Assembly: GCA_963797095.1 (NCBI GenBank)
Contig: CAWCNY010000003.1
Coordinates: forward strand, 96,001 to 160,000
DNA length: 64,000 nt
Origin: an uncultured Chloroflexia bacterium
GTDB taxonomy: Bacteria; Chloroflexota; Chloroflexia; QHBQ01; JADMIH01
Reading direction: 5' to 3'
This document shows, one piece after another, positions 4,127 to 22,378 of the stretch. How positions within the stretch are numbered: position 1 is the first letter of the stretch; each line of letters opens with the position of its first letter. A program made the translations under genes and the position numbers. The notes below the pieces were generated by a model, which was not told the origin of the DNA, ran no database searches, and saw only the letters and a program-made list of their open reading frames with translations.

Positions 4127-5272
4127 ATGGACAGGCTGGTTGATGAGACAAGGAAGAGGGGAGGGGGAAGAGTGGAACGAATGGATCGAGTAACCCCAAT
4201 CAAGAAGAATCGATCACAGCGGCCTGTGCCTCCTCAAGAGCGGTTGGCTGAACAACTTGAGGACTGGCGACGGTCACTGCAGGAACAGGATCGTTCGCCT
4301 GGCACAGTCGAGAAGTATGTCGAGGCGGTGCAGCGCTTTCTGACCTGGTTTGAGCACGAGGAAGGCGGCGGTGCGCCTTTACAAGTGGAGGCGCTCACAC
4401 CGATTGCCCTAATCGGCTATCGAAACTACCTGCAGCATGAACAACAGAAGTCGGTTAGCACTATCAACCTCCGTATCAGTGCCTTGCGCGCCTGGTGCGG
4501 TTGGCTGGTTGATCAGGGCTACCTGACTTCTGACCCTTCTGCCCGGGTAAAGCTGGTGAGGACGGCGAGCATGAACAAAGACGGCAGCGGGGCCAGTTCC
4601 AAACGAGAAGGGCTCACCGGTCCTCAAGTCAATGCTCTTCTTCGGCAGGCTCAAGCCTCCAGCGAGGCAGAGCGCAACTACGCCATTTTGCAAGTATTGC
4701 TGCAAACAGGCATTCGCTTGAGCGAGTGCAGCAGCTTGCGACTTGGCGATATCACACTTGGGGAGCGTAGCGGCATGCTGCTGGTGAGGGCGGGTAAAGG
4801 TAACAAAACTCGTTCGGTGCCTCTCAATGCTTCAGCCCGTGAGGCTCTGACCGTCTACGTCGCACCCCGCTTAGGTCCAGAAGAAGGAGAAGATGGAGCG
4901 GAAAAGAAGGCGTCGTTGAAGGTGCTTTTCAAGACCGTGGCTGCGAACTGGCCCAGGGCCGGAACGCCTCAGGCTCTTGAGCCATTGTGGCTTAGCCGCA
5001 AAGGAGGAGCGCTCACAAGTTCAGCTATCGGTCAGATGATGGCTGAACTTGTCAAGGCAGCAGGGAAGTTGGTCCCGCAAGAGACGAGCGTTCACTCTTT
5101 GCGCCATACGTTTGCTCGAAGCTACCTATCTTTATATCCCGGAGATGTGGTGGGCTTGGCAACGCTGCTGGGGCATAGTTCACTCGATACCACCCGCCTT
5201 TACAGCCAGCCTGGTGTGTCTCAGTTGGCTGCTCGTGTGGAAAGGCTCTCCCTCAACGCCTATTCGGGGTAA
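4127..5272 (+). CDS. tyrosine recombinase (XerC/D-like; probable resolvase of the transposon)
   Basis: TGIRLSE, GKGNK, HSLRH, LLGH and TRLY catalytic motifs; N-terminal SAM-like domain. The start could be 4181. Confidence 0.93.
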   Translation: MDRLVDETRKRGGGRVERMDRVTPIKKNRSQRPVPPQERLAEQLEDWRRSLQEQDRSPGTVEKYVEAVQRFLTWFEHEEGGGAPLQVEALTPIALIGYRNYLQHEQQKSVSTINLRISALRAWCGWLVDQGYLTSDPSARVKLVRTASMNKDGSGASSKREGLTGPQVNALLRQAQASSEAERNYAILQVLLQTGIRLSECSSLRLGDITLGERSGMLLVRAGKGNKTRSVPLNASAREALTVYVAPRLGPEEGEDGAEKKASLKVLFKTVAANWPRAGTPQALEPLWLSRKGGALTSSAIGQMMAELVKAAGKLVPQETSVHSLRHTFARSYLSLYPGDVVGLATLLGHSSLDTTRLYSQPGVSQLAARVERLSLNAYSG

Positions 5273-5522: not shown

Positions 5523-5708
5523 AGTAACGAGAATGGCGATTCTCGGAACTATTCGCTCATTTAGCCGCTTCCCATAGCCAATATAGCAATGGGGATAGCA
5601 TCATGCGCGAGGCCGGGAATAGCCAAGTTTGGCGATGTCAGGCCTTGCCCATGATGCTATCATGGGCTAATGCTGCAGAAAGGTAACTGCGCGCAAGGAG
5701 TAGAAAAC

Positions 5709-7178
5709 ATGGTTTCTTCCCCACCGATCAAAGTTGGCCCGGATCAAATGGCCGTAGCCCTGGAGGTCTTCAGGCAAGCCTACCCAGCCTATGATCTGAC
5801 CTGGAAACTGGACCAATTGCGAGCCAGCGAATATGCGCGCCTGGACCGGCAAGGGCACGTTTATCTCGATTACACGGGTGGCGCTCTGTACGCCGAGTGC
5901 CAGTTGCGAGACCACATGGCGCTGCTCAACGAAGGGGTGTTCGGAAACCCCCACTCCAAGAACCTGACCTCGATGGCGATGACCAGGCTGGTGGAACAGG
6001 CCCGCGACTATGTCCTTCACTATTTCAACGCATCACCCGACGAGTACATGGTGATCTTCACCCAGAACGCCACCGGGGCGCTTAAGCTCGTGGGCGAGTC
6101 TTATCCTTTTGGACCTGAGGATACCTATTTATTGACCTTCGATAACCACAACTCTGTGAACGGCATTCGTGAGTTCGCCCGCACCAGGGGAGCAACGGTT
6201 ACATATATCCCGGTTGTGCTTCCGGACCTGCGCGCCGATGAAGTGCAACTGGCCCAGGCCCTGGAGAGTGGCCGCCCCGGAAAGAACAACCTGTTTGCCT
6301 ACCCGGCTCAGTCCAACTTCACCGGGGTGCAACACCCTCTTGAGTGGATTGCGCAAGCGCAATCGAAAGGTTGGGATGTGCTGCTGGACGCGGCCTCCTT
6401 CGCACCTGCCAACAGGCTGGACCTCAATCGTTGGCACCCCGACTTCGTTGACATCTCGTTCTACAAGATATTCGGCTATCCGACCGGCACGGGTTGTCTG
6501 CTGGTGCGCAACACCGCGGCGCGCAAGCTGCGACGCCCCTGGTACGCGGGAGGCACGATCACATTTTCTTCTGTGGTGGCAAGCGACCATTACCTGACGC
6601 CCGGCCCGGCGGGGTTCGAGGATGGAACGGTCAATTACCTCAGCTTGCCCGCGGTCGAGATCGGGCTTAAGTTCATCGAGTTGATCGGGATCGACCTGAT
6701 CCATACCAGGGTCATGTGCCTGACGGGCTGGCTCATCGACCGGCTGCTATCGCTCCGCCACAGCAACGGGAATCCGCTGATTCGTCTTTATGGGCCTGCG
6801 AACACCCATATGCGCGGCGGAACGATCCAGGTCAACTTCTTTGACCCCGATGGCACTTTGTGGGATTGCAACGACGTGGAGAGACTGGCGAACGACGAGC
6901 TAATTTCCCTGCGTGCCGGGTGCCACTGCAATCCGGGGGCGCGCGAGGTCGCGCTCGGATTTACAAAGGCTGATTTGCTGCCCTGTTTCCGGGACAAAGA
7001 TCGTCTCACATTCGAGCAGTTCTTGCATGTAATCGACGGCAAGACCACCGGAGCCCTCCGCGCCTCGATTGGCCTCGCAACTACCTTCGCTGATGTCCAT
7101 AAGTACGTGCAGTTTGCCCGGACCTTCATCGACAAACATGCCGGGTTGACGAATAGAAGGGGCGAGCACACCATATAG
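5709..7178 (+). CDS. class V PLP-dependent aminotransferase/cysteine desulfurase-like protein (molybdenum cofactor sulfurase N-domain-like)
   Basis: VYLDYTG, FGNPHS, DNHNSV, LLDAA, SFYKIFGYPTG (PLP lysine) and LRAGCHCNPG. An AGGAG RBS precedes ATG 5709; the ORF opens at 5670. Confidence 0.88.
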   Translation: MVSSPPIKVGPDQMAVALEVFRQAYPAYDLTWKLDQLRASEYARLDRQGHVYLDYTGGALYAECQLRDHMALLNEGVFGNPHSKNLTSMAMTRLVEQARDYVLHYFNASPDEYMVIFTQNATGALKLVGESYPFGPEDTYLLTFDNHNSVNGIREFARTRGATVTYIPVVLPDLRADEVQLAQALESGRPGKNNLFAYPAQSNFTGVQHPLEWIAQAQSKGWDVLLDAASFAPANRLDLNRWHPDFVDISFYKIFGYPTGTGCLLVRNTAARKLRRPWYAGGTITFSSVVASDHYLTPGPAGFEDGTVNYLSLPAVEIGLKFIELIGIDLIHTRVMCLTGWLIDRLLSLRHSNGNPLIRLYGPANTHMRGGTIQVNFFDPDGTLWDCNDVERLANDELISLRAGCHCNPGAREVALGFTKADLLPCFRDKDRLTFEQFLHVIDGKTTGALRASIGLATTFADVHKYVQFARTFIDKHAGLTNRRGEHTI

Positions 7179-7260: not shown

Positions 7261-7416
7261 TTCGGTCATGGAGTGGATGTGGCGGGGTTACAGTGGGTCA
7301 TACAGCAGTCGGAGCCATCCGAAAAGTACTATTGGTGCCGGTAATAGCGGGCCCTATACTTATGTATAGTAGATGGGCTTTCAGGCCACGGCACGATGTG
7401 TCAGAGGAGGCGAACG

Positions 7417-8196
7417 ATGAAGCAACTCTTGTATGTTATTGCGGCCTTAGCTTTACTTGCCACGGGCTACCTGATAGGAATTTCCGCAACGAGAACCGGC
7501 GAGGCAGGGCCTTTGTTGCAAGGCGGCTGCCAGGCGTTCCCCGAGACAAAACAGGCCGTCTGCGGTCAATTCCTGACATACTGGCAGGAACATGGAGGTC
7601 TCGCGCAGCAGGGCTATCCAATCAGCGGCGAGTTCCGGGAGCAGTCCGACCTTAACGGGCAGGTTTACACAGTACAATACTTCGAGCGCGCCGTGTTCGA
7701 GTACCACCCCGAGAACCCACCGCCCAACGATGTGCTGCTCTCTCAGCTTGGCACATTCAGGTACAAAGAAAAGTACGGGTCAGGCATACCGGGCGCTCAG
7801 CCCTCAGTCACCTCTGTGCCGCCTACTCCTCTGCCTGCCGCCGTTGTAAACCTGGGCGAGCCGGTCAGGCGCAACGGGCTGGTGTTCACTGTGATCAGAC
7901 TTGACCGCCTCCTCAAAAGGACCGACGTGATCTACACTGTGAAGAACGAGAGCGGAAGCCCTGTCACCTTCGTGCTCGCCAATAAAGACCAGCAGCTTCT
8001 CAACAGCGCGGGCCAGCCTCTGGAGCTTGCCAATCCGGATGCTGTCGCTACTATCACTCTGCAAGATGGGCAGGAGTACATGGGCGGCACTACCTTCAAT
8101 GGCGTTCTGGCGGCACGCACCGACCACGCTACGTACATCGCGGACAATATAACCGGAATCGGAAGCGTGCGAGTGACCATTCCGCTATCAGACTAA
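7417..8196 (+). CDS. secreted protein with a Chloroflexi-type FPET...GYPIS...QYFERA surface domain and a C-terminal Ig-like region
   Basis: GAGGAGG RBS, signal/TM segment, recognisable repeat motif and a Pro-rich linker. Confidence 0.75.
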   Translation: MKQLLYVIAALALLATGYLIGISATRTGEAGPLLQGGCQAFPETKQAVCGQFLTYWQEHGGLAQQGYPISGEFREQSDLNGQVYTVQYFERAVFEYHPENPPPNDVLLSQLGTFRYKEKYGSGIPGAQPSVTSVPPTPLPAAVVNLGEPVRRNGLVFTVIRLDRLLKRTDVIYTVKNESGSPVTFVLANKDQQLLNSAGQPLELANPDAVATITLQDGQEYMGGTTFNGVLAARTDHATYIADNITGIGSVRVTIPLSD

Positions 8197-8381: not shown

Positions 8382-10829
8382 TTACTCACCGTTTCTATTC
8401 GCGCCTGAAATGCCGAGCGCGAACCCAAGAGCCACGTCCATGCCCATTGGGCGACCGCTTTCCTGGGCGTCCTGCCATACCTGGGCGTCAAGGTCTGCTC
8501 GGACGGCCGCTTCGATCTCTTCCCTATCACGCTGATCGTTGGGGTCGAAAAGCGTGCCGCCGAAAGCCGCCAGGGCGTTGCCTGCTCCTATCAGCCGGGC
8601 TGCTTTTCGGGCGTTGCCCTCCGCCCGCTCGATCCCGGCCCAGACGAAGAGACCAGTAGCGAAAGGATAGGGCGACGCCAACTCGCGGAAAAGATGCAGA
8701 GCCTCGCTCAGCAGCTCTTTCGCGCGCTCATACTCCCTGCAATGGTAGAGTACAAAGGCCAGGCTCATCGCCTCCACCGCCACACCTCGTTTATTGCCTA
8801 CCTCGCGGTTCAAAGCCAAACATTTCTCAAAGAAATCGATAGCGCGGGGGTAGTCGCGTTCCGACCTGGCCGCCTCGCCCATGCTGCTCAGCGCTACCGT
8901 CATGCCCTCGTTGTCTCCTATTGCTCGAGAACGTTCGAGACTCTCATCGAGTAAGGCCCATGCTAGTTCTCTATCACCCGGCAGATTCATTTCGTGTATC
9001 AGATGCGCCACTACACGGAGCGCTCTGACGATCCCCTGCTCGTTGTTCAGCGCCCTGTAGACCCGCAAGCACTCCTCGGCCATTACCCTGCAAAGGGGGT
9101 ACTCCCTCGTTCGCCATAGCACCGAGAGCGCGGCGTGCAAAGCCCTGGCTCGGACAAGAGTAGGCTTCAGCGTGTCCCCCACCAGTGACCGCTCCGGGAT
9201 CCGACCGAGCCACCATCTACCCTCGCGCGGGTAGTGGTCGATCCAGAAGGGCCTGAGTGCGCCACCAAACCGGAGGGCGATATCCTCTTCGCCTCGCGCC
9301 AGCGACCACGCTAGCGCGGCCACGGTGTTGCTGTGCTCGCTCTCAAGACGCCCCACCCAGTCAGTTTGCTCCTGCCCCCTCAGGTGGGGTTCGGCGCGCT
9401 CGACCAGGCTCAGGAAGTAGGCCGCGTGCTTTCGCCTTATGTCTTCCGCCTCGTCACTCTCACCCAATCCTTCCAGCGCATATTCTCCTATCAACTCCAG
9501 CATCGTGAAACGGCGCTCCTGGCCCCTGGTCTCGTCACTGACGATGGTGCGCTTCAACAAACTCTTCCCCAGCAGCGATTCAATGCCATCGGTAGCATCT
9601 GGTCCGCACACTGCCTCGGCTGCCTCCAGCGTAAAGCCTCCCACAAACACGCTCAACTGGGATAGGAGCCGCCGCTCGTGAAGTTCCAGAAGTTCGTAGC
9701 TCCAGTCGATGGCCGCGCGCATCGTCTGTTGGCGCGCAGGAAGGTGCGCGAAATGCCTGTGGCGCGCGGGGTTGGCCAGCAAGCTCAACTGCTTATCCAG
9801 GCGAGCAGCCATATCGGCCACCGAAAAGAGCGATACACGGGCCGCTGCCAGCTCGATAGCCAGAGGCAGACCGTCCAGACGCGTGCAGACCGTGGTTATG
9901 TCAGAGGCATTTCGCTCGTTCAATGAGAAGGATGGGTCGACCGCACGCGCTCGTTCCAAGAACAGGGCAATGGCAGGGTAGCTCGGCAGGGTCGCCACAG
10001 CGGGCATGCGTACAGGATTGGGCAACTCGAGAGGAGCGAGCGGTAATTGCTGCTCTCCCATAACATGAAGGGCTTCGCGGCTGGTTACAAGGATTTTCAG
10101 ATGCGCAGACGCGTTGAGTATATCGACCACCAGCGGCGCGGCGTCCAACACCTGCTCGAAGTTGTCGAGCACCAGCAGTACCGTCTTACCGGCCAGGAAA
10201 TGCTTGAGCGAGTCTTGTACAGTCTGGCCACCGCTCTCTGCCAGTCCAATAGTGGCGGCGATTGCCGAGGCCACCGCAGCGGGATCGCTTATGGGGGCTA
10301 ACTCAGAAAAATAGACGCCGTCACTGAAATGCCCTACCAGATTTGCCGCTACTTGCAGGGCCAGGCTAGTCTTACCTATGCCGGGTGCCCCGGTCATAGT
10401 CAGCAGATGAACGTCATCCCTTAGCAGATAATCGCAAGCAGCAGCTACGTCCTTCTCGCGCCCAAACAGCGGTCTGAGGAGCGAAGGCAAATTGGAGGAA
10501 GGCAACCGAGGCATATGCTCGGAGGTCGATGGGAGCGATGTGCCGGTTTGCGACCCATGGCCATTGGCCGATTCGTCCGGCACGGGACCTAGCTCAGAAG
10601 ATTCACCGCGTGCAAAGCTGATAAATTCCTCGTGCTCTTCCGGAGGTATTTTGAGACACTCAGCAAGCCTTTGGGCTACCTGCTTGGAAGGCCGGCGCTG
10701 GCCCACCTCGATCTTATGGATCGTGATTGTGGAGCACCCAACGCGCTCAGCAAGGTCCTCTTGGGTCAGATCAAGGGCACGGCGACGCTGCTTGAGCCAT
10801 ACGTTGAAGGAGATATCCTCTATCCCCAT
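8382..10829 (-). CDS. XRE-HTH / NB-ARC ATPase / TPR (STAND-type) transcriptional regulator
   Basis: LKQRRRALDLTQEDLAERVGCS HTH, GAPGIGKT Walker A, LLVLDNFE Walker B, LDGLPLAIELAA and C-terminal TPR-like helices. The ORF opens at 10883. Confidence 0.92.
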   Translation of the reverse strand: MGIEDISFNVWLKQRRRALDLTQEDLAERVGCSTITIHKIEVGQRRPSKQVAQRLAECLKIPPEEHEEFISFARGESSELGPVPDESANGHGSQTGTSLPSTSEHMPRLPSSNLPSLLRPLFGREKDVAAACDYLLRDDVHLLTMTGAPGIGKTSLALQVAANLVGHFSDGVYFSELAPISDPAAVASAIAATIGLAESGGQTVQDSLKHFLAGKTVLLVLDNFEQVLDAAPLVVDILNASAHLKILVTSREALHVMGEQQLPLAPLELPNPVRMPAVATLPSYPAIALFLERARAVDPSFSLNERNASDITTVCTRLDGLPLAIELAAARVSLFSVADMAARLDKQLSLLANPARHRHFAHLPARQQTMRAAIDWSYELLELHERRLLSQLSVFVGGFTLEAAEAVCGPDATDGIESLLGKSLLKRTIVSDETRGQERRFTMLELIGEYALEGLGESDEAEDIRRKHAAYFLSLVERAEPHLRGQEQTDWVGRLESEHSNTVAALAWSLARGEEDIALRFGGALRPFWIDHYPREGRWWLGRIPERSLVGDTLKPTLVRARALHAALSVLWRTREYPLCRVMAEECLRVYRALNNEQGIVRALRVVAHLIHEMNLPGDRELAWALLDESLERSRAIGDNEGMTVALSSMGEAARSERDYPRAIDFFEKCLALNREVGNKRGVAVEAMSLAFVLYHCREYERAKELLSEALHLFRELASPYPFATGLFVWAGIERAEGNARKAARLIGAGNALAAFGGTLFDPNDQRDREEIEAAVRADLDAQVWQDAQESGRPMGMDVALGFALGISGANRNGE

Positions 10830-10906
10830 CTTCCTTCTACCTCTCACATCGCGCATTGCAGAATGCAGCTTACCAATCGGCAAGCAGTAGGACGTTCAGG
10901 CCCACC

Positions 10907-10976
10907 TGTATGAGCGTTTGTACCAGTGATGTATGGGCAGCAGTATGAACAATTATATCCGATTGCGTGCAACAAT
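10907..10976 (+). promoter_or_regulatory. four direct repeats (TGTATGRGY-like) plus an ACAAT -10-like box upstream of the peptide gene
   Basis: Repeats at 10907, 10919, 10930 and 10942 (spacing 12/11/12); AACAAT at 10971. The same geometry recurs at 13819-13888. Confidence 0.7.
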
Positions 10977-11055
10977 ATGCGCGAGGTAAGCAGGCTTCAA
11001 CGGTATTGAACTATCCGCTGAAGCCCCACAGGGTTCCAAAGGGAGGTGAACAACA

Positions 11056-11133
11056 ATGAAGGCCATTATCAAATACGCCCGCTACGCTCTCGCATCGCTG
11101 GCGACAATTGGCTTCAAACTCTCTTCCAACTGA
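11056..11133 (+). CDS. 25-aa peptide MKAIIKYARYALASLATIGFKLSSN (putative signalling/RiPP precursor)
   Basis: Strong GGGAGGTG RBS before the ATG; basic N-terminus, hydrophobic core and polar tail; first gene of the operon. Below the ORF-track length cutoff. Confidence 0.75.
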   Translation: MKAIIKYARYALASLATIGFKLSSN

Positions 11134-11365
11134 GCGTCAGTAAGTGCCACGGAGTAATCCATCCTGCACCTTGGCATGGACATGGATCGTACACGATCGA
11201 AGTGGGCACTGCCATGTGATATGGGGTGCCCCTTTCTCTATGCAACCATCGACCTTGTTCCCATCTGCAAATGCGCTGCCTGCAGCTATTCAACGTACAT
11301 TGCCAGGACTTCCGTCCCATGATGATCTGTGCGAGTACACTCGTCACTCAATCCAGGAGCACTCA

Positions 11366-12919
11366 GTGATTGAGACTGCTTTCGCGCAACTTCGTTTCGC
11401 AGCCTCACTGCTCTTTGGTATTCGCTTCAGCCAGCGCGCGCTCGACAAAATGATAGACGCCATGCTCGCCACTCGTCAGGAGTTCGGCGCTCTAGGGGAG
11501 GAAGCGCGTGAACTCACTACCGGCCCCACACTGGACGAGGAGACCCGCCGCGACATGCAGCTTCGTCGCTTCCGTAAGCAGGCGACCCGCGCAGCTAACC
11601 AGACGCCTTACTACGGGGAGTTATTCAAGCAGCTAGAGCTGGAGCCGGCAAGATTGAGTTGGAAAGAGGTGCTGCGCATACCTCTCACTCCCAAAGAGCA
11701 CATGCGCGACCGCCCAGGCGACTTCGTCTGTCGGGATGCTCGCCCCGTCTTCCGGACTACCACCACCGGCACGACAGGCTGGCCCACCAGTGTCTCCTTC
11801 TCTGCCTATGAGATGGGCACCTATATAGCCCTGGGAGCAATCGGTCTGCTCAATGAGGGCACTGTCACGGGCGAGGATATTGCCATCATCAGCACCAGCT
11901 CGCGGGCAACGCTGGGCAACCTCTGCGCGGCCGGGGCATTGGCTCGGATAGGAGCACTAGTGTTCAATGGCGGCCTGGTAGATCCCGCCTTAACATTGGC
12001 GCTCCTATCCGAACGACACCGAATCCCTGGGAAGCGAGAGCGAGTGAGCTTGATGGTCACTTATCCCTCGTACCTCGGCGACGTAGTGGAGTGCGGGCAG
12101 CGGTTGGGATACTCGCCGTCCGACTTCGGGGTGCGACGTATCAATGTGAGCGGGGAGATAGTCACCGCGGGGCTGCTGGCCCGCGCGCGCAAGCTCTTTG
12201 GGGATGGCATAGAGTTCGAGAGCGGCTACGGGATAACGGAACACTGGCCTCTAACCGGCATGCTCTGCGAGCAAGACCACCTGCACTTCGAGCCTTCTCA
12301 TGGCCTGATTGAGGTGTACAACCACGAAACTCAGGCGCTTGCCCAGCCGGGTGAGTATGGCACAATCGTGTCTACCCCTTTCTGGCCTCTCAGAGAAACC
12401 ACCCTTGTCATTCGCTATGACACTCAGGACTTAGTGCGCGTGTTCGATGGCCCATTTACATGCCATCTAGAGAACTTGCCCGCCGTATCGAACGTGCGCG
12501 GCAAGCTGAAGCTAGCGGTGAAGCACGAAAGCGGTTGGACATTTCCGCGTGACATCATGGAAGCGTTGGAGGGAGAAGATCTGGCGGACGAAGTGCCGTT
12601 GCCTGCTCGCTTCAGCTTCTGGGCGGTGCCTGGTGGGGTTGCCATAGACACTGTAGTCCGGCGGGGAGCGGACCCGAAGGCAACCAGCCGCCAGGTGACG
12701 AACGCCTTGCAAGAGCGGGGCGTACCCGTTCGGGAGTTGCATCTGATTACCGACAAGAGCCGGCTTCGCAATCCGCTCCCTCTGCGAGGCGACCTGAGGG
12801 AGACTTCGTTTAGCACGTCTAGTATGCCAAGTAAGACCTCCCAAGCGTTGGAAACCCTGCGTCGGGACTCTGAATCAGTAAACCACGTTCCGAGCGATCC
12901 GCTAGCAGTGGGCAAGTAA
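11366..12919 (+). CDS. phenylacetate-CoA ligase (PaaK)-like ANL adenylate-forming enzyme with an N-terminal extension
   Basis: TTTGTTG P-loop, SGE, YGITE and IRYDTQD motifs; AGGAG RBS before GTG 11366 (ORF opens at 11144). Confidence 0.85.
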   Translation: MIETAFAQLRFAASLLFGIRFSQRALDKMIDAMLATRQEFGALGEEARELTTGPTLDEETRRDMQLRRFRKQATRAANQTPYYGELFKQLELEPARLSWKEVLRIPLTPKEHMRDRPGDFVCRDARPVFRTTTTGTTGWPTSVSFSAYEMGTYIALGAIGLLNEGTVTGEDIAIISTSSRATLGNLCAAGALARIGALVFNGGLVDPALTLALLSERHRIPGKRERVSLMVTYPSYLGDVVECGQRLGYSPSDFGVRRINVSGEIVTAGLLARARKLFGDGIEFESGYGITEHWPLTGMLCEQDHLHFEPSHGLIEVYNHETQALAQPGEYGTIVSTPFWPLRETTLVIRYDTQDLVRVFDGPFTCHLENLPAVSNVRGKLKLAVKHESGWTFPRDIMEALEGEDLADEVPLPARFSFWAVPGGVAIDTVVRRGADPKATSRQVTNALQERGVPVRELHLITDKSRLRNPLPLRGDLRETSFSTSSMPSKTSQALETLRRDSESVNHVPSDPLAVGK

Positions 12920-12920
12920 G

Positions 12921-13781
12921 ATGGAGAGCCTAACCTCTTCACGGCTGGTAGTGTTAGCCTTCGCCTTCGCTGCTATCGCTCTGAGCTGGCTTTACTTTCG
13001 CCGCTTCCAGGTCACCCGACCGCCCATCGGCGTGTTCAACCTGACCGACATAGGCATCGTGGTAGGGGGCTTAATCCTGGTGCCGTACTTATATCTGCTC
13101 TTACCTCTCTGGCTGATTGCCGGGCTGCTGACTCTGGGTGCTTTGAGTGTGATCTACTTTCTTTGGGAGCCGGTGCTGCGAGGCCGTCTGTTGGTCTGGC
13201 TGGCAACTCTCGCTCTCTTATGCGCCGATATCTGGGCTGCGCTGCAATTCGGTACAAGCAGCAACGGCTTCTTCATTGTGAATAACATTGTCCTGCTTGC
13301 TATGGTAGTGGGCTTGTCCAACCTGTGGGCGCAAAGTGGTATGCGAGCTAGAGACGTGATGATCCTGGGCAGCTTTCTCATGTTTTACGACCTGACTGCC
13401 ACCTGGCTGCTTCCCGTCATGAGCGACATGATGCTGCGGCTGGCGGGTTTGCCGCTCTCACCCATGTTCGGGTGGGGCATTGGACGCAACAGCGACAGTG
13501 CGAGCGGGAGCGGCCCATTGGCAAGTGTGGGCCTGGGGGACCTGTTGCTGGCCTCAGTGTTCCCCCTGGTTATGTACAAGGCTTTTGGGCGCGCCGGGAG
13601 CTGGGTGGCGATGGTGATAGCACTGGGAGCTATCTCAGCTATCATGCTGGCGCATATAGCAGACACATTCCCCTTGATGATTGTGCTCGCCCCTCTCATG
13701 ATAGCTCAATACGTCTACTGGTCGCGTATGAAGGGCCGTGAGCGCACCACCAGGCAGTATCTGCAGGCTGAGCCGCTGTAG
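12921..13781 (+). CDS. multi-TM GxGD intramembrane aspartyl protease (presenilin/signal-peptide-peptidase-like)
   Basis: About 9 hydrophobic segments, with FYDL and GLGDL motifs in adjacent TMs and a C-terminal FPLM in the position of the PAL motif; starts 1 nt after the ligase stop. Confidence 0.72.
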   Translation: MESLTSSRLVVLAFAFAAIALSWLYFRRFQVTRPPIGVFNLTDIGIVVGGLILVPYLYLLLPLWLIAGLLTLGALSVIYFLWEPVLRGRLLVWLATLALLCADIWAALQFGTSSNGFFIVNNIVLLAMVVGLSNLWAQSGMRARDVMILGSFLMFYDLTATWLLPVMSDMMLRLAGLPLSPMFGWGIGRNSDSASGSGPLASVGLGDLLLASVFPLVMYKAFGRAGSWVAMVIALGAISAIMLAHIADTFPLMIVLAPLMIAQYVYWSRMKGRERTTRQYLQAEPL

Positions 13782-13818
13782 CGTGGGTGATAGTGGCCCC
13801 TATCCCCTCAGGCTCTGT

Positions 13819-13888
13819 TGTATGGGCTTTTGTATGGGTGGTGTATAGGTGAACGTATGCGCAAACTTGCCTAGGAATGCAGCACAAT
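13819..13888 (+). promoter_or_regulatory. second copy of the four-repeat operator plus a CACAAT -10-like box
   Basis: TGTATGGGC 13819, TGTATGGGT 13831, TGTATAGGT 13842, CGTATGCGC 13854; CACAAT at 13883. Confidence 0.7.
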
Positions 13889-13969
13889 GCAACCAGGTCG
13901 CAGCACTACCAGCAGGTCAACAATCCCAATCAACAGGACGCAACTATGGACGATGAGGAAAGAGGTCAA

Positions 13970-14200
13970 ATGAGCAGTATCCCCCATTACAGTTCATCCA
14001 GGCTTTTCCTCGTGCGGGTGTTGGTGGACGAGACCAGTGGGTGCAAAGGCCAGAGGAAGGCGGAGCGGAGCGGGCGAGTGCAGCATGTGGTCACGGGAGA
14101 GGCTCACGACTTTCGCGGTTGGGCCGAGCTACTGCAATACCTCGACACACTTCTGGACGACCCGCCGAACGCCTGCTCCGATAACGGCAGTAACGAGTAA
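13970..14200 (+). CDS. small hypothetical protein (LFLVRV...GRVQHVVTGEAHDF..W.EL)
   Basis: GAGG RBS before ATG 13970; globular-looking beta/alpha sequence; ORF opens at 13877. Confidence 0.65.
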   Translation: MSSIPHYSSSRLFLVRVLVDETSGCKGQRKAERSGRVQHVVTGEAHDFRGWAELLQYLDTLLDDPPNACSDNGSNE

Positions 14201-14284
14201 CGAGTAACAAGTAACCAATCACGAAAAGTAACTACAATATACCGCTATTTCACCCTTGTTGGACGTTTGTTAGGGAGGATCAGG

Positions 14285-17200
14285 ATGGACAAGCACAGGA
14301 ACAGCCTCGACCCACGAACAACCCTGGCTCATTCGCTTTTGCTTCTGAAGGGCATCAGGAAGCATATTCGTGTTCGATTACAAAGCCTCCCGCTCCTGTT
14401 CCTGATCTTGTTTCTCTCAGTTACATCAGGATCGCTTGCTCGCACAGCAAGCGTCTCTGCCATGCGTGCGCCTGCTGGTATTATGCACAATATAGCTGGG
14501 GCAAAGACCGTCGAGTTTGCCTGGCTTGATGGCGGGGGCTTGTTTGAAGTGGCCGCGCAGCCCGTTTGCGCCACTTCCAGTTGCACGAACCCCAGCTTCG
14601 GAGCGGCCACCAATTACAATGTCGGAGCCTACCCCGGCTCAATAGCCAAAAGCGATTTCAATCGGGACGGCAAGATGGACCTTGTCGTTGCGAACTGGGG
14701 CTCAGCGAATATTCGAGAGTTAGTTGGTGATGGCAATGGCGGGTTCGCTTTGACCCTCACGATCGTCGTAGATACGGGAGGCAATTTTCTGAATGTGGAC
14801 GATGTTAACAGGGACGGTAATCCCGATGTCCTTATTGCTCTCTCGAACTCCGGACAGGTAGGGGTATTACTTGGCAACGGTACTGGAGGGTTTGGCCTTG
14901 GCACCTATTATGGTGTCGGCTCCGGTCCATCAGCTGTATCATCAGGCGATTTCAACAGGGACGGCAACCCCGACCTGGCCGTTGCGAACTACTCCTCCAA
15001 CAACATTTCTGTGTTGTTGGGCAACGGCTCCGGCGGGTTCAGCACTGCCGTTTATTTTCCGTCAGGGACTAATCCGGACTCGATTACCGTAGGCGACCTG
15101 AACAAAGACGGCAATCTTGACCTCCTCGCCGCCAACTACGGCTCCAACAGTGTATCCGTTTTGTTGGGTAATGGCTCAGGGGGGTTCAGTGCCGCTGTTA
15201 ACTTCGCTGTGGGCTCGTACCCCGTTTCCGTCACGGTCGGTGATTTCAACAAGGATGATAATCCTGACCTCGCTGCTGCCAATGGGGCAGCCAACACCGT
15301 ATCCATATTGTTGGGCAACGGCACGGGTGGTTTTGGCGCTGCCACCGATTTTTCTGTTGGAGTATCCCCAACCTCTGTGTCCATCGACGACTTCAATCGG
15401 GATGGACAAGCGGATCTGGTGGTTGCCAACGGTGGAGTGAATAATGTGTCGGTGCTCCTGGGCGATGGCGCCGGGAGTTTCGGCATTGCTGTTACCTTTA
15501 CGACAGGTTCGGGCCCCAAATCGCTGGTAACGGGCGACTTCAACAGAGACGGTAGCCCGGACCTGGCGGTTGTCGCCAGTACGTCCAACTCCCTTTCCGT
15601 GCTGCTGAACACCTGCAATCTCGTTTGCCCTTCGCCCACATTTGGCGGTCTCACCCCCTATGCAGCCGGGGTGGGCCCGTTTGAGGGAGCCGCAGGTGAC
15701 TTCAATAAGGACGGGATCCTCGACCTGGCGGTGGCCCGCCGGTATGCCAACAGCGTAGCTATACTCCCCGGCAACAGCAGCGGAGGATTCGGCGCGACCA
15801 CCAACTATGCTACAGGCGCGCAGCCACTAGCGGTGTCAACAGGCGATTTCAACAGAGACGGGAATCTTGATCTCGTAACACCTGATTTCGGGTCCAATAC
15901 CGTGTCGGTGTTGCTCGGCAACGGCTCAGGCGGCTTCGGCACGGCCACAGCTTATACGGTTGGGGCCGGTCCGGAAAGCGTGGTAGTGGGCGACTTCAAT
16001 AGAGACGGGAAGCTCGACCTGGCCGTGGCCTGCTCGGTGGACGGTCTCATCTACGTGTTGATAGGCAACGGCAGCGGAGGCTTCACTGCGGCATCGAGCA
16101 ACGGTGTAAGTTCTTTCCCCATCTTTGTGACAACCGGCGACTTCAATAGGGATGGCATCCTGGACTTGGCTACTGCCGCCTACTCAAGCAACTATGTGGC
16201 TGTGTTACTGGGCAACAGCTCCGGCGGCTTCGCAAGCGCCAGTTACTTCGCTGTTGGTACAAACCCCAGGTCTGTGGCGGTGAGCGACCTCAATCTGGAT
16301 GGCGTCCTCGACCTGACCGCAGCGAACTATGGCTCAAGCGATCTATCGGTCCTGCTCGGCAATGGCTCCGGCGGGTTCGGTGCCGCCACTAACTATATAA
16401 CTGGGTCAAATCCCGAGTCGACCGTAGTGGGCGACTTCAACCGCGATGGAGTTCCGGATGCTGCGGTAGCGGCTGTCTACAGCGATCAGGTTATGCTTGG
16501 CAACGGTAGCGGAGGTTTCGGCACTCCTTCAAGCTATGGTTCGGGTGCGGTTGGAGTGCTGGCAGGGGACTTCAACAGGGATGGCGGCCTCGACCTGGCT
16601 TTCAGTAACTACAACACCAATTCTGTAGATGTGCTGCTGAACGCTTGCGGCACCAACATCCCCACGCCCACCCCCACAGGCACTCCCACTAACACGCCCA
16701 CACGCACGAACACGGTGCCACCTACCACCACTCCCACACGCACCAGCACGGCTGCCAACACGCCAAGCCCGACAAATACACCCACCAACACGCCAACCCC
16801 GACGCCAACCCTGACCAATACAGCTTCGGCAACGCCCACGCGCACGCCTACGCGCATGCCGACATCTTTGCCCACCAACACGCCTACCCATACGAGCACG
16901 CCCCCGCCTACGCAGACTCAGGGCGGCCCATCGGCCACGCCCGTGCCGAGCAATACGCCTACCAGCACCTTTACGGCCATACCAACGCACACGCACACAG
17001 CCACACCGACAGGCACGAATACGCCCAGAATTACGCCCACAGTTACGCCCACTAACACACCTACCAGCACACCTCAGCCCACGCAGACTCAGGGCGGTCC
17101 ATCAGCCACTGCCGTACCGAGCAACACGGCCACAACTGTGCCTACCAATACCCCTGCCGGGACAGCTACCGGCACGCCCACCAGTACCCCCACTACCGTG

Positions 17201-17959
17201 CAGGGCACAACTAATACACCTCAGCCATCCGATACTCCTATCGCCACATCTACTTCCTGCCCGATCCAATTCACCGACGTGCCCCAGAATAGTCCGTTCT
17301 ACTCGTATATCAGGTGCATGGTTTGCCGCGGGCTGGTCAATGGCTACTCGTCGGGCTGCGAGAACGGCAACCCATGCTTCCGACCAGGCAATAACGTGAC
17401 GCGTGGTCAATTGGCTAAGATCGTGGCTAACGCTGCAGGCTTCAGCGACCACATCCCCTCCAGCCAGCAGAACTTTGACGACGTGCTCCCCAGCAACGCC
17501 TTCTGGCTCTACATCGAGAGGGTGTATGCCCACCATGTCATCGCCGGCTACGCAGGAGACGGTGTGACGGTCAACCCATGCACAGGACAGGTGGAACAAA
17601 GCGGGCATATATACTTCCGCCCATGCAACAATGCCACCAGAGGGCAGATAGCCAAGATCGACTCCGTGGCTGCCGGCTACTCTGATGTCATCCCTAGTAG
17701 CCAGCAAACCTTCGATGACGTATCCCTCTCCAACCCGTTCTGGCTCTACATTGAGAGGGTGCACCTGCACTCGGTAATCAGCGGCTACACAGGAGACGGT
17801 GTGACGGTCAACCCATGCACAGGACAGGTGGAACAAAGCGGGCATATATACTTCCGCCCATGCAACAACGCCACCAGAGGGCAAACCTCGAAGATAGTTG
17901 CCAACACGTCCCTCCCTAACTGTGAAACACTAGGTGCCATCGAACAGCCGCGTCGATAG
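14285..17959 (+). CDS. FG-GAP/VCBS repeat surface protein (2 x 7 blades) with a Pro/Thr linker and C-terminal SLH domains
   Basis: 14 DFNxDG repeats in two Cys-bounded groups of 7, a long PT-rich stalk, and FTDV/TRGQ SLH motifs; GGGAGG RBS. Confidence 0.9.
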
Positions 17960-18978: not shown

Positions 18979-19830
18979 ATGAGTAGGAGTAGATATGTCA
19001 TGAGCGCGGTCACGGGTCAGGTTATGGGTGCGGCCCAACAGCCAGCGTATGAATGGAAAGACTTGCCATGGAAGCAAATCGAGAGGCATGTCTTCAAGCT
19101 CCAAAAGAGAATCTATCGGGCTTCCGTCCGTGGCGATGTTAGGGCAGTCCACCGGCTACAGAGGTTATTGATGAAATCCTGGTCGGCAAAAGCACTGGCT
19201 GTTCGTAGGGTTACTCAAGACAACCGAGGCAAGAACACAGCCGGAGTGGACGGGGTGAAATCGCTCAACCCAAAACAACGACTACGACTTGTCACGATAC
19301 TGACTTTACCCAAGAGGGCACAACCCACAAGAAGAGTTTGGATACCCAAATCCGCCTCCAAAGAGAACGAAAAACGCCCTCTTGGAATACCAACCATACA
19401 CAATCGAGCAGAACAAGCACTCGCTAAGCTAGCCTTGGAAGGTGAGTGGGAAGCTCGATTTGAACCAAACAGCTACGGTTTTCGACCAGGACGAAGTGCC
19501 CATGATGCGATTGAAGCAATCTTCTTGGGTATTCGCCTCAAGCCAAGATATGTGCTTGATGCCGATATCGCGAAATGTTTTGATCGAATCAACCACACTG
19601 CACTATTGAACAAACTCCAAACCTACCCTCGAATGCGAAGAGCCATCAAAGCATGGCTCAAAGCAGGAGTGATAGAAGGGGAGGAATTGTTCCCGACCGA
19701 GGAAGGAACTCCTCAGGGTGGGGTTGCCTCGCCGCTACTCGCCAATATCGCCTTGCACGGCCTGGAAACATCTATCTGCAAAGCCTTTCCATCGAACCAA
19801 AGACCAATAGTATTAAGGTATGCCGATGAT
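18979..19830 (+). CDS. ltrA: outer group II intron RT/maturase, exon 1 (ends at YADD)
   Basis: WKQIERHVFKLQKRIYRAS, TAGVDG, RPLGIP, YGFRPGRS, PQGG and RYADD; exact start codon uncertain. Confidence 0.9.
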
Positions 19831-22378
19831 GTGCGCCATATCACCAGGTGCTAGATACCTTTCGCAGAAAGGAGGGGTTCGGAAGAATAAACCCCTGGGT
19901 CAATGGCTTACCCGATGGCGAAAGCCAAAAGGAACAATAGCATGCCATTAAAGCAGGAGAGAAATGCCACGTCAGAAGATGCTTATGACCTTGTCCTGCA
20001 AGACCCGCGTAATACGGTGAAAGCCAAACTGCTTGAACTTCAGTCTCTAGCGATGCAAGCGTACATCCCCCGATTACAGCATCTAAGGCGGGGCCATCAC
20101 GATAGGGCGACAAAATCGTCGTCGCTCGAACCTTCCGCGTGATGGGCGGTGAGAAACGATCTCACTCAAAGGGGCAGACGAAGCACCTAAGTTACGCTCG
20201 ATACGTCTAGCATTTAGGGAATATGGGATTGCCCAACGGGCCGAGAGGCCCAGGGTAACGGAGCCTCCGTAGTACTCAGAGGACGGGAAAGCCGTCCACA
20301 TTGACCAGGGTACGTCCACGTGAAACCACGTGAGGATTTCATGTTGAACGTAACCAGGCGGGGAAGGGAGGCAGGTGCTTTGAAACCCAGCAAGAGAGGT
20401 ACTCGAGATGAGAAACGCCGAAACTGTACTGGGGATCATCCAGGATCGCGGCAGGAGAGGACTGCTGCTAGAAGATGTCTATCGACAACTGTTCAACCCG
20501 CAACTGTACCTGCTCGCCTATGGCAAGATTTACCGAAACAAAGGAGCGACGACACCGGGAACGACACCGGAAACTGTGGATGGAATGTCCATGATGAAAA
20601 TCGATGCCATCATCGAAGCCTTACGCTTCGAGAGATACAGATGAACACCGGTGAGGCGTATCTACATCGAGAAAAAGCACTCCAAAGGGAAGCCCCAGAG
20701 GAAGTCTCAAGGAAAAGCAATCTCGAAAAAGAAGCGCCCCCTCGGAATACCCGCATGGTCAGACAAACTGTTGGCGGAGGTAATACGCCTCATCCTTGAA
20801 GCATACTACGAACCGCAATTCAGCCCATCTTCCCACGGTTTTCGCCCTGACCGAGGTTGCCACACAGCGCTACGGGAAATCTACCATAAATGGGTGGGCA
20901 CAAAGTGGTTCGTGGAGGGCGACATTTCCGACTGTTTTGGCTCGCTGGATCACACCATCATGATGTCAATACTCAGGGAAAAGCTCCACGATAACCGCTT
21001 TCTGCGCTTGATTGAAGGTTTGCTCAAGGCCGGATATTTGGAAGGGTGGAGATACAACGCCACGCTCAGTGGTAGTGCACAAGGCTCGGTACTTAGCCCC
21101 ATCCTCGCCAATATCTACCTTGCCAAACTGGATAAGTATGTCGAGACGACGCTCTTGTCAACCTACAACCAAGGGAACCGACGCAAGATCAACCCGGAGT
21201 ATCTCCGGCTACGCGCCAGTGTCACGAGGCTAAAACGGATGGGGAAAAAAGAGCAAGCACACAAGTTGCGTCGTCAGATGCAGCAGCTACCCTCCCTTGA
21301 CCCCAACGACCCAGCCTACAGACGGTTGCGCTACATACGGTATGCAGACGATGTGCTTGTGGGTTTCAGCGGCCCACGTAAGGAAGCTGAAGAAATCAAG
21401 CAACTCCTCAAAGAGTTTTTGGGTGATGAACTCAAGCTGACCCTCTCAGAGGAGAAAACGTTGATCACCCATGCACGGAGCAAAGCTGCACGCTTTCTGG
21501 GTTATGAGGTCGTAGTGCTCAACAACGACCACAAACTGGACCGGCGTGGACATCGGAGCATCAACGGCCAGATCGGGCTGAAAGTACCCTCGGACGTAGT
21601 ACGTGCGAAATCTACTGGCTACCTGCACAACGGCAAACCGATACACCGAACGGAACTTATCCACGACAGCGTGTACAGCATCATGGCACAGTACCAGGCG
21701 GAGTACCGGGGCATTGTGGAGTACTATCGGCTGGCTTACAACCTGCACCAACTCAACCGGCTGAGGTGGGTGATGGAACGGTCGCTAACTCAAACACTGG
21801 CACACAAGCTACGCATCAGCGTGAGCAAAATCTACCACCGTTACCAAACCAACATTCAGACAGAAGCGGGTCCACGTGTTGGCCTGCAAGTGGCGGTTGA
21901 GCGCGGAGAGGGAAAGAAGCCACTGATAGCGAAGTGGGGCGGTATTACTCTCGCACGGAATATGAAAGCAGTCCTCAACGACCAACCTACACGTGTTTGG
22001 GGATCACACTCACACACAGAGCTAGAAAAACGGTTCCTGGCAGACACTTGTGAGCTATGCGGCTCACGTGAAGATGTCGAGGTACACCATATTCGAGCAC
22101 TAAAAGACCTCAAACGAAAGGGACGTGCTGATAGACCTGAATGGGTGAAAGTGATGGCGGCACGCCAACGCAAGACGCTGGTGGTCTGCCGAGCATGTCA
22201 CGATGAAATCCACAGAGGGAAACTAACACAGCATACACTACCACGAGTACAACACGAAGCCGCTAATGGAAATGGAGAAGCACTGGAGAGCCGGGTACTC
22301 CGAAAGGCGTAAGCCCGGTTTGGGGAGGGGCGGACAGAAAAGTATCGGTAACGACAACTCGCTGGCCGCCTACTCTAC
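19831..22378 (+). mobile_element. group II intron, inner (IIA, LtrB/ML-like), inserted after the YADD codons
   Basis: Begins GTGCG at 19831, has domain V GAGAGCCGGGTACTCCGAAAGGCGTAAGCCCGGTT at ~22287 and ends CTACTCTAC at 22378. Removing it restores YADD|FVVMHE. EBS1 and EBS2 pair with the exon. Confidence 0.93.
20408..22312 (+). pseudogene. inner intron RT/maturase/HNH with an in-frame TGA at 20642-20644
   Basis: ORFs 20408..20644 and 20651..22312 share a frame and read ERYR*TPVRRIYI (probably TGG->TGA). RYADD is intact, with C-terminal CELC..HH..CRACH HNH. Confidence 0.85.

Follow-up and report, generated by a model that had tools for sequence, protein, structure and literature searches.

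A candidate peptide-processing cassette combining a 25-residue peptide, a PaaK-like ligase and a membrane protein of the presenilin/signal peptide peptidase fold

Results

The window studied here is a stretch of 64,000 nucleotides from an uncultured Chloroflexia bacterium (GenBank assembly GCA_963797095.1, contig CAWCNY010000003.1, positions 96,001 to 160,000). Its positions 8,382 to 17,959 carry a regulator gene of the STAND type, a gene for a 25-residue peptide, a PaaK-like ligase gene, the gene of a polytopic membrane protein, and a small open reading frame (ORF) followed by a surface-protein gene; all genes named in a preliminary description of this DNA are thus present. The peptide, ligase and membrane protein genes recur together in soil bacteria from two phyla, and we consider it very likely that they are one functional unit. 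In our best explanation, to which we give about an even chance, they are a self-contained three-gene cassette for peptide processing that in this genome is controlled by a local regulator. In the following, G000 denotes the genome of the window, G025 a sister genome and L0xx a fetched locus (L018 is G025:C2); P0001 is the STAND regulator and P0004 the small ORF protein of the window. The features of the locus are these:

8382..10883, minus strand: XRE-HTH/NB-ARC/TPR STAND regulator P0001 (Pfam HTH_3, NB-ARC, TPR, TPR_MalT)
10907..10947, plus strand: operator-like array 1 (sequence reading, pattern scans, kept in G025)
11056..11133, plus strand: gene of the 25-residue peptide, family Y-x-[KR]-Y-x4-L-x4-F (tblastn, hidden Markov model, hydropathy)
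11366..12919, plus strand: PaaK-family adenylate-forming ligase, 517 residues (NCBIfam and PDB sequence matches, alignment, AlphaFold2 model, Foldseek)
12921..13781, plus strand: membrane protein of 286 residues with nine predicted transmembrane (TM) helices, presenilin/signal peptide peptidase (SPP) fold and GxGD motif (motifs, AlphaFold2 model, Foldseek, VIA)
13819..13859, plus strand: operator-like array 2 (sequence reading, pattern scans)
13970..14200, plus strand, in an ORF open from 13877: small protein P0004 (alignment with the G025 homologue; no Pfam family)
14267..17959, plus strand: FG-GAP/SLH surface protein, 1230 residues, with a Thr/Pro-rich linker (Pfam FG-GAP_3, FG-GAP, SLH)

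Conservation of the three genes

We collected 43 loci with a relative of the membrane protein, taking one genome per GTDB species. The carriers belong to Chloroflexota (Chloroflexia, Anaerolineae, Ktedonobacterales, Thermomicrobiales and Roseiflexaceae) and Actinomycetota (Acidimicrobiia, Rubrobacteraceae, Solirubrobacterales, Nitriliruptorales, Actinomadura, Kitasatospora, Jatrophihabitans and about ten Streptomyces), and one further carrier is a bin labelled Brocadiaceae. In 42 of the 43 loci, the membrane gene comes with a ligase gene, directly upstream of it in 41 and at a distance of 3.3 kb in L043; in the remaining locus, L055, the contig is cut inside the membrane gene.

Peptide genes were searched in two steps. 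A tblastn search with the window peptide alone returned copies in six loci (those named are L018, with two copies, L019, L035, L056 and L015), which lie on either side of the gene pair and on either strand. A profile hidden Markov model (HMM) was then made from these copies and rebuilt once from its own matches. With this HMM, a family peptide ORF was found within about 1 kb of the ligase/membrane pair in 37 of the 43 loci, upstream of the ligase in 18 and downstream of the membrane gene in 19. All three genes stand together in these 37 loci, in the way that the precursor gene of a ribosomally synthesized, post-translationally modified peptide (RiPP) is clustered with its processing enzymes. 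The HMM scores reach E ≤ 2e-5 in 27 loci, whereas the other ten (L045-L054) have E values of 0.02-0.6 that are not significant by score alone; in these ten, nine from Streptomyces or Kitasatospora and one from Jatrophihabitans, a near-identical ORF of 22 residues lies 62-222 nt upstream of the ligase. Several loci have more than one peptide gene: two copies are present in L018, L019, L036 and L056, three in L043 and five to six in L023. In the 13,898 frames searched, every HMM match at E < 0.01 lay at a cassette. A peptide is missing from six loci: L014 and L055 are short fragments, L017 is cut upstream, L024 is a small contig, and L020 and L021 come from genomes (G031 and G035) that have peptide genes elsewhere.

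The preliminary description had named homologous loci lacking the peptide ORF as the observation that would tell against it, and the outcome was in its favour. Indeed, synteny across two phyla bears out its grouping of peptide, ligase and membrane protein, here as a conserved functional unit. No other conserved neighbour, transporter and immunity genes included, was detected when the 519 neighbouring ORFs were clustered (no family in more than 7 of the 43 loci), with ORFs called crudely as the longest frames of at least 90 residues, which in high-GC DNA include wrong-frame ORFs. Since no other neighbour is conserved, we take the cassette to consist of three genes. It is rare and patchily distributed: it was seen in 6 of 61 relatives (including G000), with 3 carriers among the 25 genomes that belong to the genus of G000, and in 5 of 301 phylum members sampled at a completeness of at least 80%.

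Long ORFs that span both genes in L040, L045, L046, L051 and L054 had raised the possibility of a ligase-protease fusion; in L045, the one case checked by frame arithmetic, the ORF proved to be the open upstream frame of the membrane gene rather than a fusion. In L018 (6225-8853 of the fetched locus), the ligase and protease genes are each split by a frame change, and a second, partial protease copy (residues 138-286) lies at 2637-3086 after an upstream SLH-domain fragment; these are either pseudogenes or errors in a metagenome-assembled genome.

The peptide family

The peptide of the window (11056-11133, plus strand) has the sequence MKAIIKYARYALASLATIGFKLSSN. Its ORF follows a strong ribosome-binding site, AAGGGAGGTGA, and is divergent from the regulator gene, with a gap of 173-226 nt; ribosome-binding sites of the GGAGGTGA type precede peptide copies from both phyla. 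This ORF, already pointed out in the preliminary description, belongs to a conserved family of unannotated peptides. Family members are 22-29 residues long and have the motif Y-x-[KR]-Y-x4-L-x4-F within the consensus M-x-K-x3-R-Y-A-R-Y-A-L-x2-L-A-x-V-G-F, which is followed by 4-9 variable residues. Among 30 peptide copies, Y10 is invariant and Y7, L15 and F20 are kept in at least 90%; the N-terminal two thirds are conserved and the last 4-9 residues vary. A hand count of the ORF in the window and in G025 gave 7 synonymous and 5 non-synonymous changes.

In a set of 31 copies, the residues ahead of the hydrophobic core carry a net charge of +3 (range 2-5) and those behind it one of about 0, and the best window of 11 residues has a Kyte-Doolittle hydropathy of 1.8 (0.96 for the best window of 19 residues). 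Judged by its residues, the layout resembles a free-standing signal peptide, with a positive n-region, an h-region of 11 residues rich in Ala, Ser, Thr and Gly, and a short polar tail. The final residue depends on the lineage, being Asn or Gln in nearly all Chloroflexota copies and Ser or Thr in most Actinomycetota copies, which hints that the C-terminus may matter chemically.

The peptide matched no family in Pfam or NCBIfam. None of six copies that were looked up in a collection of 15 billion proteins was present there, showing that the peptide genes are unannotated. A prediction of the complex of protease, ligase and peptide scored 0.01, which is no evidence either way because the peptide is below the 30-residue calibration of the tool.

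The first ~22 residues of the ligase (11366-11431; consensus M-x-E-T-A-x-A-Q-L-R-F-A-x-S-x-L-x-G) resemble the R-Y-A-R-Y-A-L-x-x-L-A-x-V-G-F part of the peptide. This likeness is the sole hhalign match of the two profiles (E 0.019, probability 2.4%), and we set it aside as too weak to use. At L064 (6671-8301; G031:C60), two tandem orphan peptide genes lie directly 3' of a same-strand FAD_binding_3 gene of the aromatic-ring-hydroxylase type, with ligase and protease not nearby; the FAD_binding_3 protein may be an additional tailoring enzyme that acts on the invariant Tyr or the Phe residues.

The membrane protein

The membrane gene starts 1 nt past the stop codon of the ligase, and its translation is, by this spacing, predicted to be coupled to that of the ligase. 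The protein has the motifs Y156-D157, G204-L-G-D207 and P258-L259, of which Y156-D157, G204-x-G206-D207 and P258-L259 are invariant in 16 close relatives; in 67 diverse members, G204 is invariant and Y156, D157, G206, D207 and P258 are kept in at least 90%. The family is large: 608 proteins at E ≤ 1e-3 among 8000 candidates scored, and 460 clusters at 50% identity in an exhaustive search. Of the best 120 relatives, those with a name are all listed as 'hypothetical', and precomputed Pfam domains are absent throughout. Searches of Pfam and NCBIfam gave no family and, at E ≤ 10, only a chance-level match to a domain of unknown function (DUF) and no model of the A22 family (MEROPS), to which presenilin and SPP belong. 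Likewise, no PDB chain was found at E ≤ 10 by phmmer or with the 67-sequence profile. The kinship with A22 therefore rests on fold and motifs.

An AlphaFold2 model built on the 67-sequence alignment had a predicted local distance difference test (pLDDT) score of 94.1, a predicted TM-score (pTM) of 0.92 and nine TM helices. In this model, YD lies in TM6 (helix 143-163), GxGD at the start of TM7 (205-222) after a short beta-hairpin, and P-L in TM9 (helix 253-271). The Foldseek matches at ranks 1-20, in a list from which similar chains of listed entries are omitted, were all SPPL2a, the presenilin of gamma-secretase or archaeal PSH, with TM-scores of 0.50-0.65; beyond rank 20, the scores dropped to ~0.14, that is, to noise. 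The VIA comparison gave the same order, with Z scores of 23.8 for human SPPL2a (root-mean-square deviation 3.1 over 253 residues), 17.2 for PSH, 12.9 for presenilin 1 and 12.8 for presenilin 2, and 5.4 for the next chain. Counted by hand from sequence and model, the positive charges (Lys/Arg) are in loops 1, 3, 5 and 7 and in the C-terminal tail; this distribution predicts an N-out/C-in topology, which is the orientation of SPP and not of presenilin.

The preliminary description had called this protein a GxGD protease. The fold and the position of the motifs in the right helices agree with this name, whereas membership in an A22 sequence family was not found. The model thus presents the protein as fold-level kin of A22 that has the motifs and stands outside the existing sequence families, and it is likely, on these grounds, to be an active GxGD protease. 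One neighbour cluster in the ESM Atlas, mostly from Actinomycetota, carries the automatic name 'signal peptide peptidase domain-containing', and 24% of its members have PF04258; bacterial SPP-like proteins, though uncharacterised, are therefore already in databases.

The ligase

The ORF of the ligase is open from 11144. Its homologues and one called protein of exactly this length start at GTG 11366, the same start as in the preliminary description, which had also recognized the PaaK-like nature of the protein now seen in sequence and fold matches. The NCBIfam scores are 44.6 bits for TIGR02155 (phenylacetate-CoA ligase; cutoff 646.3) and 85.9 for the DVU_1553 family (cutoff 300). With a score this far below the TIGR02155 cutoff, the enzyme is not phenylacetate-CoA ligase itself. 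At E ≤ 0.01, the only PDB sequence matches were three, all PaaK-type, and the protein of the window had no Pfam match, whereas most homologues have PF00501; the homologues are annotated as phenylacetate-CoA ligase or AMP-binding protein. The top Foldseek matches of the AlphaFold2 model (pLDDT 88) were BT_0428, PaaK1/2, NatL2, AjiA1, ClxA and 2-hydroxyisobutyryl-CoA ligase (E ~1e-25, TM-scores of 0.64-0.78).

In 23 family members, the P-loop TTTGTTGxPT, YGMTE and RYxTxD are conserved. Specific to the family, and conserved in the same members, are ~60 extra residues at the N-terminus and, in the C-terminal part, the motif P-x-R-x-D-x-[RK]-E, which in the window is P472-x-R474-x-D476-x-x-E479. 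The PaaK family is described as including CoA-independent ligases that form esters or amides, for example NatL2 and ClxA (PMC7204872, PMC12519233). By analogy with these two enzymes, ligation without CoA would be plausible for the cassette ligase as well.

Regulators, repeats and the surface-protein operon

P0001 has the domains HTH_3 (residues 30-83), NB-ARC (143-271) and TPR (~624-765), so that the XRE-NB-ARC-TPR regulator described earlier as divergent from the peptide operon is recovered with Pfam. Alignment with its G025 homologue indicates that the true start is probably ATG 10829 (M19). The regulator belongs to a large family: G000 has about 35 paralogues (36 further matches at E ≤ 3.5e-50, two of which are pieces of one gene), and at E ≤ 1e-30 there are 56 P0001-like matches in G025, 73 in the 6.7 Mb of G035 and only 11 in G031. 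The XRE- and LuxR-type NB-ARC/TPR STAND regulators are thus massively expanded in G000, G025 and G035.

A P0001-like gene lies within 1 kb of the peptide in 2 of the 37 peptide-bearing cassette loci (L018 and L026) and within 3.5 kb in two more (L023 and L031), which rules out the regulator as a core component of the cassette; like the surface protein, P0001 is specific to its lineage. With about 35 paralogues in 6 Mb, simple arithmetic predicts a regulator within 8 kb on either side in about one locus in ten. Nevertheless, P0001 homologues flank the cassette in G025, a SARP-NB-ARC-TPR gene lies 101 nt beyond the peptide in L044, and L048 has another NB-ARC/TPR gene. In G035, the cassette locus is followed by a further NB-ARC/TPR regulator gene, and all three orphan peptide loci (L063, L065 and L066) lie near such genes, at 94, 217 and 524 nt; by arithmetic, the chance of this closeness is ~4% per locus. 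The adjacent regulators share a homologous NB-ARC/TPR core and differ in the DNA-binding domain, which is of the XRE type for the window and L018, of the LuxR type for L026 and L031 and of the SARP type for L044.

The link between peptide genes and the NB-ARC/TPR regulator family in Chloroflexia is real, and it fits either sensing of the peptide by the regulator or mere control of the peptide genes. Of the earlier proposal that the regulator is part of the system, the association with peptides remains, in view of the three orphan peptides of G035, and the place in the conserved unit does not, given two of 37 loci and ~35 paralogues; sensing of the peptide by the TPR domain and autoinduction are unsupported. 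A short peptide gene beside an HTH/TPR gene, as in RRNPP systems, was found in the window and in L063, L065 and L066, but not in most cassette loci, and in P0001 the HTH_3 and TPR domains are separated by an NB-ARC ATPase of ~350 residues.

Two arrays of four direct GTATG-like hexamers ([T/A]GTA[T/C] in array 1) precede the two operons. In array 1, TGTATG, TGTAC, TGTATG and AGTATG start at 10907, 10919, 10930 and 10942, and in array 2, TGTATG, TGTATG, TGTATA and CGTATG start at 13819, 13831, 13842 and 13854; the spacing is 12-11-12 in both, and the last repeat lies 109 nt before the ATG of the peptide and 111 nt before ATG 13970. The 'identical operator geometry' reported earlier was therefore seen again, and it recurs in G025, where TGTAT occurs three times at a spacing of 11 nt ahead of the tandem peptide genes and ahead of the small-ORF homologue. 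Beside each of these G025 promoters lies a separate regulator paralogue, the small-ORF homologue is followed by an SLH protein, and ~130 nt of promoter region are kept between G000 and G025. A scan for the repeat pattern, which was defined after both sites had been seen so that the following figures overstate its significance, found it at two places only in the window (0 in 100 shuffles) and four times across the genome of 6.0 Mb, where the reversed control had 0 matches. That the regulator acts through these repeats is, in our view, fairly probable.

The small protein probably starts at ATG 13970 (codon 32, M32), as the G025 homologue aligns from about residue 28 and the distance to the repeats then matches that of the peptide gene. 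P0004 (...LFLVRV...G-R-V-Q-H-V-V-T-G-E...F-x-x-W-x-E-L...), whose homologue in G025 has the same position, matched no Pfam family. The surface protein, with likely start at ATG 14285, has Pfam matches to FG-GAP_3 (11 stretches), FG-GAP and SLH. It had been presented as an adhesin and the output of the system; this part of the proposal is not sustained, the FG-GAP/SLH link having been seen in one genus only (G000 and G025). From the arrays shared by the two genomes, it is reasonable to infer common regulation of the two operons, though within this genus only.

Proposed mechanism and alternatives

SPP-type enzymes cut N-in segments. For SPPL2-type enzymes, the substrates are described as N-in (type II) hydrophobic segments (PMC10509304). 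According to the positive-inside rule, the peptide would enter the membrane N-in, and a protease in the SPP orientation (N-out/C-in) would face such N-in helices and could cut the peptide within its hydrophobic stretch. We lean slightly towards the peptide being the substrate of the membrane protease. The cytoplasmic ligase would use ATP to activate a carboxylate of the peptide, which may be its own C-terminus before insertion or, after cleavage, the C-terminus newly formed on the N-terminal fragment, which would be cytoplasmic and bears the invariant Tyr-x-Arg/Lys-Tyr. An ester or amide would then be formed. We place action of the ligase on the peptide just short of an even chance. The C-terminal fragment, proposed earlier as the piece modified by the ligase, does not suit this role, since the predicted topology puts it outside the cell and away from a cytoplasmic ATP-dependent ligase. 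P0001 would most likely bind the four GTATG-type direct repeats ahead of the peptide operon, and the same array ahead of the small-ORF/FG-GAP-SLH operon would bring the two operons under common control.

Several observations weigh against processing of the peptide by such a cassette. The HMM that places the peptide at most loci was trained on its own matches, and L017, L020, L021 and L024 have usable flanks yet no nearby peptide. The hydropathy of the peptide over 19 residues (0.96) is below that of a classical TM helix, the hydrophobic stretch being too short, and the peptide is conserved over its whole length without a hypervariable core; it could instead be a small subunit or regulator. Sequence methods place the membrane protein in no A22 family, and its 'PAL' motif is G-P-L, with the Pro conserved. 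In the ligase, the canonical ANL A10 lysine is not identifiable in the alignment, and the closest characterised relatives activate small aryl acids. The post hoc definition of the repeat pattern also belongs here.

The conservation of the whole peptide across two phyla, together with its very short length and moderate hydrophobicity, would suit a small protein at the membrane that serves a ligase-protease complex as subunit, anchor or inhibitor, the substrates of the complex being other molecules such as released signal peptides or a different membrane protein. BofA, which occupies the active-site cleft of the intramembrane protease SpoIVFB, is a described case of this kind (PMC9042235), and the one match of the peptide profile in the ligase, to its N-terminal helix, points the same way as weakly as stated above. 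We consider such a role quite unlikely: tandem diverged copies (five to six in L023, three in L043 and two in four loci) are what is usually seen with substrates or precursors and seldom with a stoichiometric subunit, orphan copies occur far from the enzymes in G031 and G035, and the position and strand of the peptide gene differ among loci. It is also very unlikely that the ligase is an ordinary CoA or AMP ligase for small (aryl or fatty) acids, which either acylates amino groups of the peptide to give a lipopeptide or serves an unrelated step of membrane lipids. All characterised structural neighbours take small acids (phenylacetate, 3-hydroxyanthranilate, 3-amino-4-hydroxybenzoate and 2-hydroxyisobutyrate), and the annotations of the homologues agree with this. 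However, 37 of 43 loci show strict coupling of the ligase to protease and peptide, no gene in the vicinity would supply or use a small acid, its score is far from the PaaK equivalog cutoff, and it has its own conserved N-terminal extension of 60 residues and a distinct C-terminal motif.

Processing of the peptide by the cassette could also serve purposes beyond those assumed above. In an autoinducing circuit like those of RRNPP and SHP systems, the processed, ligase-modified fragment would bind the TPR domain of P0001, and P0001 would activate the peptide and surface-protein operons. The divergent arrangement of the peptide gene and an HTH-plus-TPR regulator gene, the three orphan peptides of G035 beside NB-ARC/TPR genes, regulators with three types of DNA-binding domain (XRE, LuxR and SARP) beside peptides or cassettes, and the repeat arrays common to both operons in G000 and G025 would all be expected from it, and there is a precedent in Rgg/SHP, where precursors of ~24 residues are encoded beside the regulator and matured by Eep (PMC7564271). 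The adjacency fits equally well a cluster-situated regulator that merely controls the peptide operon. Moreover, 33 of 37 peptide-bearing loci have no P0001-like gene within 3.5 kb, no conserved exporter or importer is near the 43 loci, P0001 has an NB-ARC ATPase while RRNPP receptors have none, G000 has about 35 paralogues and one significant peptide gene, and the link to the surface protein is limited to one genus; on balance, the circuit is unlikely. Wider still is the possibility that the ligase-modified N-terminal Tyr-x-Arg-Tyr fragment is an intracellular ligand of NB-ARC/TPR STAND regulators, which would make this a new signalling and RiPP class of Chloroflexota and Actinomycetota with the first bacterial presenilin/SPP-type protease that has a dedicated substrate; we regard it as a long shot.

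A membrane-derived antimicrobial, that is, a bacteriocin-like RiPP comparable to the TMcins, is the least expected product, and we judge it highly improbable. It would account for the multi-copy precursors, the patchy distribution (6 of 61 relatives and 5 of 301 genomes of the phylum) and the mobile elements that flank the locus, and STAND, SARP and LuxR regulators like those seen here are typical of actinomycete biosynthetic clusters. TMcins are described as RiPPs that are matured inside the membrane (PMC13712780). Against an antimicrobial, the neighbourhood of the cassette has no conserved gene for immunity or export, and conservation of the peptide between phyla is unusually high for a weapon.

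Comparison with known systems

The cassette protease shares with SPP/SPPL2a, presenilin and PSH the 9-TM fold, YD in TM6, GxGD in TM7 and Pro-Leu in TM9, and with SPP also the N-out/C-in orientation, as far as the hand-counted loop charges indicate. It differs from the A22 enzymes in being bacterial, in a sequence for which similarity to A22 Pfam models or to PDB chains was not detectable, in having G-P-L instead of P-A-L, and in being encoded with a short peptide and an adenylating ligase. A 2010 paper describes presenilin and SPP in eukaryotes and presenilin-like proteins of archaea, at first suggested and later demonstrated, and it names type IV prepilin peptidases as the prokaryotic GxGD proteases; at the time of that description, the physiological substrates of PSH were not known (PMC2947513).

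In Rgg/SHP systems, precursors of ~24 residues (22-25) are encoded next to the gene of an HTH-TPR regulator and are matured by the intramembrane protease Eep (PMC7564271). Common to these systems, or to PrgX with Eep, and the cassette are a precursor of ~22-25 residues with basic N-terminus and hydrophobic remainder and, in the window, a neighbouring HTH-plus-TPR gene. In contrast, Eep is an S2P zinc metalloprotease encoded elsewhere, whereas the gene of the cassette protease, which is of the presenilin/SPP fold, lies beside that of the peptide. In addition, the cassette has an ATP-dependent ligase and a regulator with the NB-ARC STAND ATPase, it lacks a conserved PptAB-like exporter or Opp/Ami importer nearby, and it occurs in Chloroflexota and Actinomycetota rather than in Firmicutes.

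The TMcin system (TmcA/TmcP) is similar in that a ribosomal peptide is processed in the membrane by a clustered intramembrane protease (PMC13712780). TmcP, however, is an S2P-clan DUF3267 metalloprotease, and TmcA, far longer than the cassette peptide, has a leader of 45 residues and a genuine TM helix (PMC13712780). The steps listed for the TMcin pathway are removal of the leader peptide, disulfide-bond formation, secretion and escort, and no adenylate-forming ligase is described among them (PMC13712780).

The cassette ligase shares the two-domain ANL fold and the P-loop, YGMTE and RYxTxD motifs with PaaK1/2, BT_0428, NatL2, AjiA1 and ClxA. It is only 17-22% identical to these enzymes and differs from them in the extra N-terminus of ~60 residues, the C-terminal motif of its own and the constant pairing with an SPP-like protein. 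P0001, in turn, has NB-ARC and TPR domains like the STAND regulators MalT, AfsR (SARP-NB-ARC-TPR) and LAL, and direct repeats about one helical turn apart adjoin it; it differs from these in that its DNA-binding domain is an N-terminal HTH of the XRE type and that it is one of ~35 paralogues.

Our literature search, whose reach did not extend to subscription-only papers and supplementary files, found no published description of the cassette or its peptides, and none of five peptide motifs. For RiPP precursors with a PaaK-like ligase or an intramembrane protease, it returned the TMcins only, and no RiPP class matching peptide, SPP-like protease and PaaK-like ligase was found. We rate the pair of a presenilin/SPP-fold protease and an adenylate-forming ligase as unprecedented for clustered processing of a ribosomal peptide, here possibly in signalling, with a high chance of new chemistry. 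Presenilin/SPP-type proteases are central to intramembrane proteolysis and to Alzheimer research; if the peptide is the substrate, a compact bacterial homologue beside a substrate of 25 residues would be a natural, genetically tractable enzyme-substrate pair. As the cassette is present in culturable Streptomyces and Actinomadura, a direct search for its product is feasible. Current annotation misses the peptide genes, and those beside the expanded NB-ARC/TPR family in Chloroflexia hint at what some orphan STAND regulators respond to.

Surroundings of the locus

A scan of 10700-14400 for terminator-like sites found none; of promoter-like sites, it returned a single one, on the minus strand within the ligase gene, which was not above shuffles. 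A search of sequencing runs for the stretch gave seven DNA entries from soil metagenomes, six of them with part of it (at best 0.27 of the words), and no RNA run was among those listed. Between the integrase on one flank and the regulator lie a class-V aminotransferase gene (5670-7178) and a gene for a 266-residue protein without Pfam family (7396-8196), neither of which was seen again at other cassette loci. The same flank has a protein with a Mu-type transposase C-terminal domain (2231-3964, minus strand) and the tyrosine integrase itself (4127-5272). On the other flank are three ORFs of the group II intron reverse-transcriptase/maturase/HNH type (18979-19854, 20651-22312 and 22382-23353), which have the appearance of nested or broken introns. 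The mobile elements on both sides, together with the patchy distribution of the cassette, suggest that the region is accessory or horizontally acquired.

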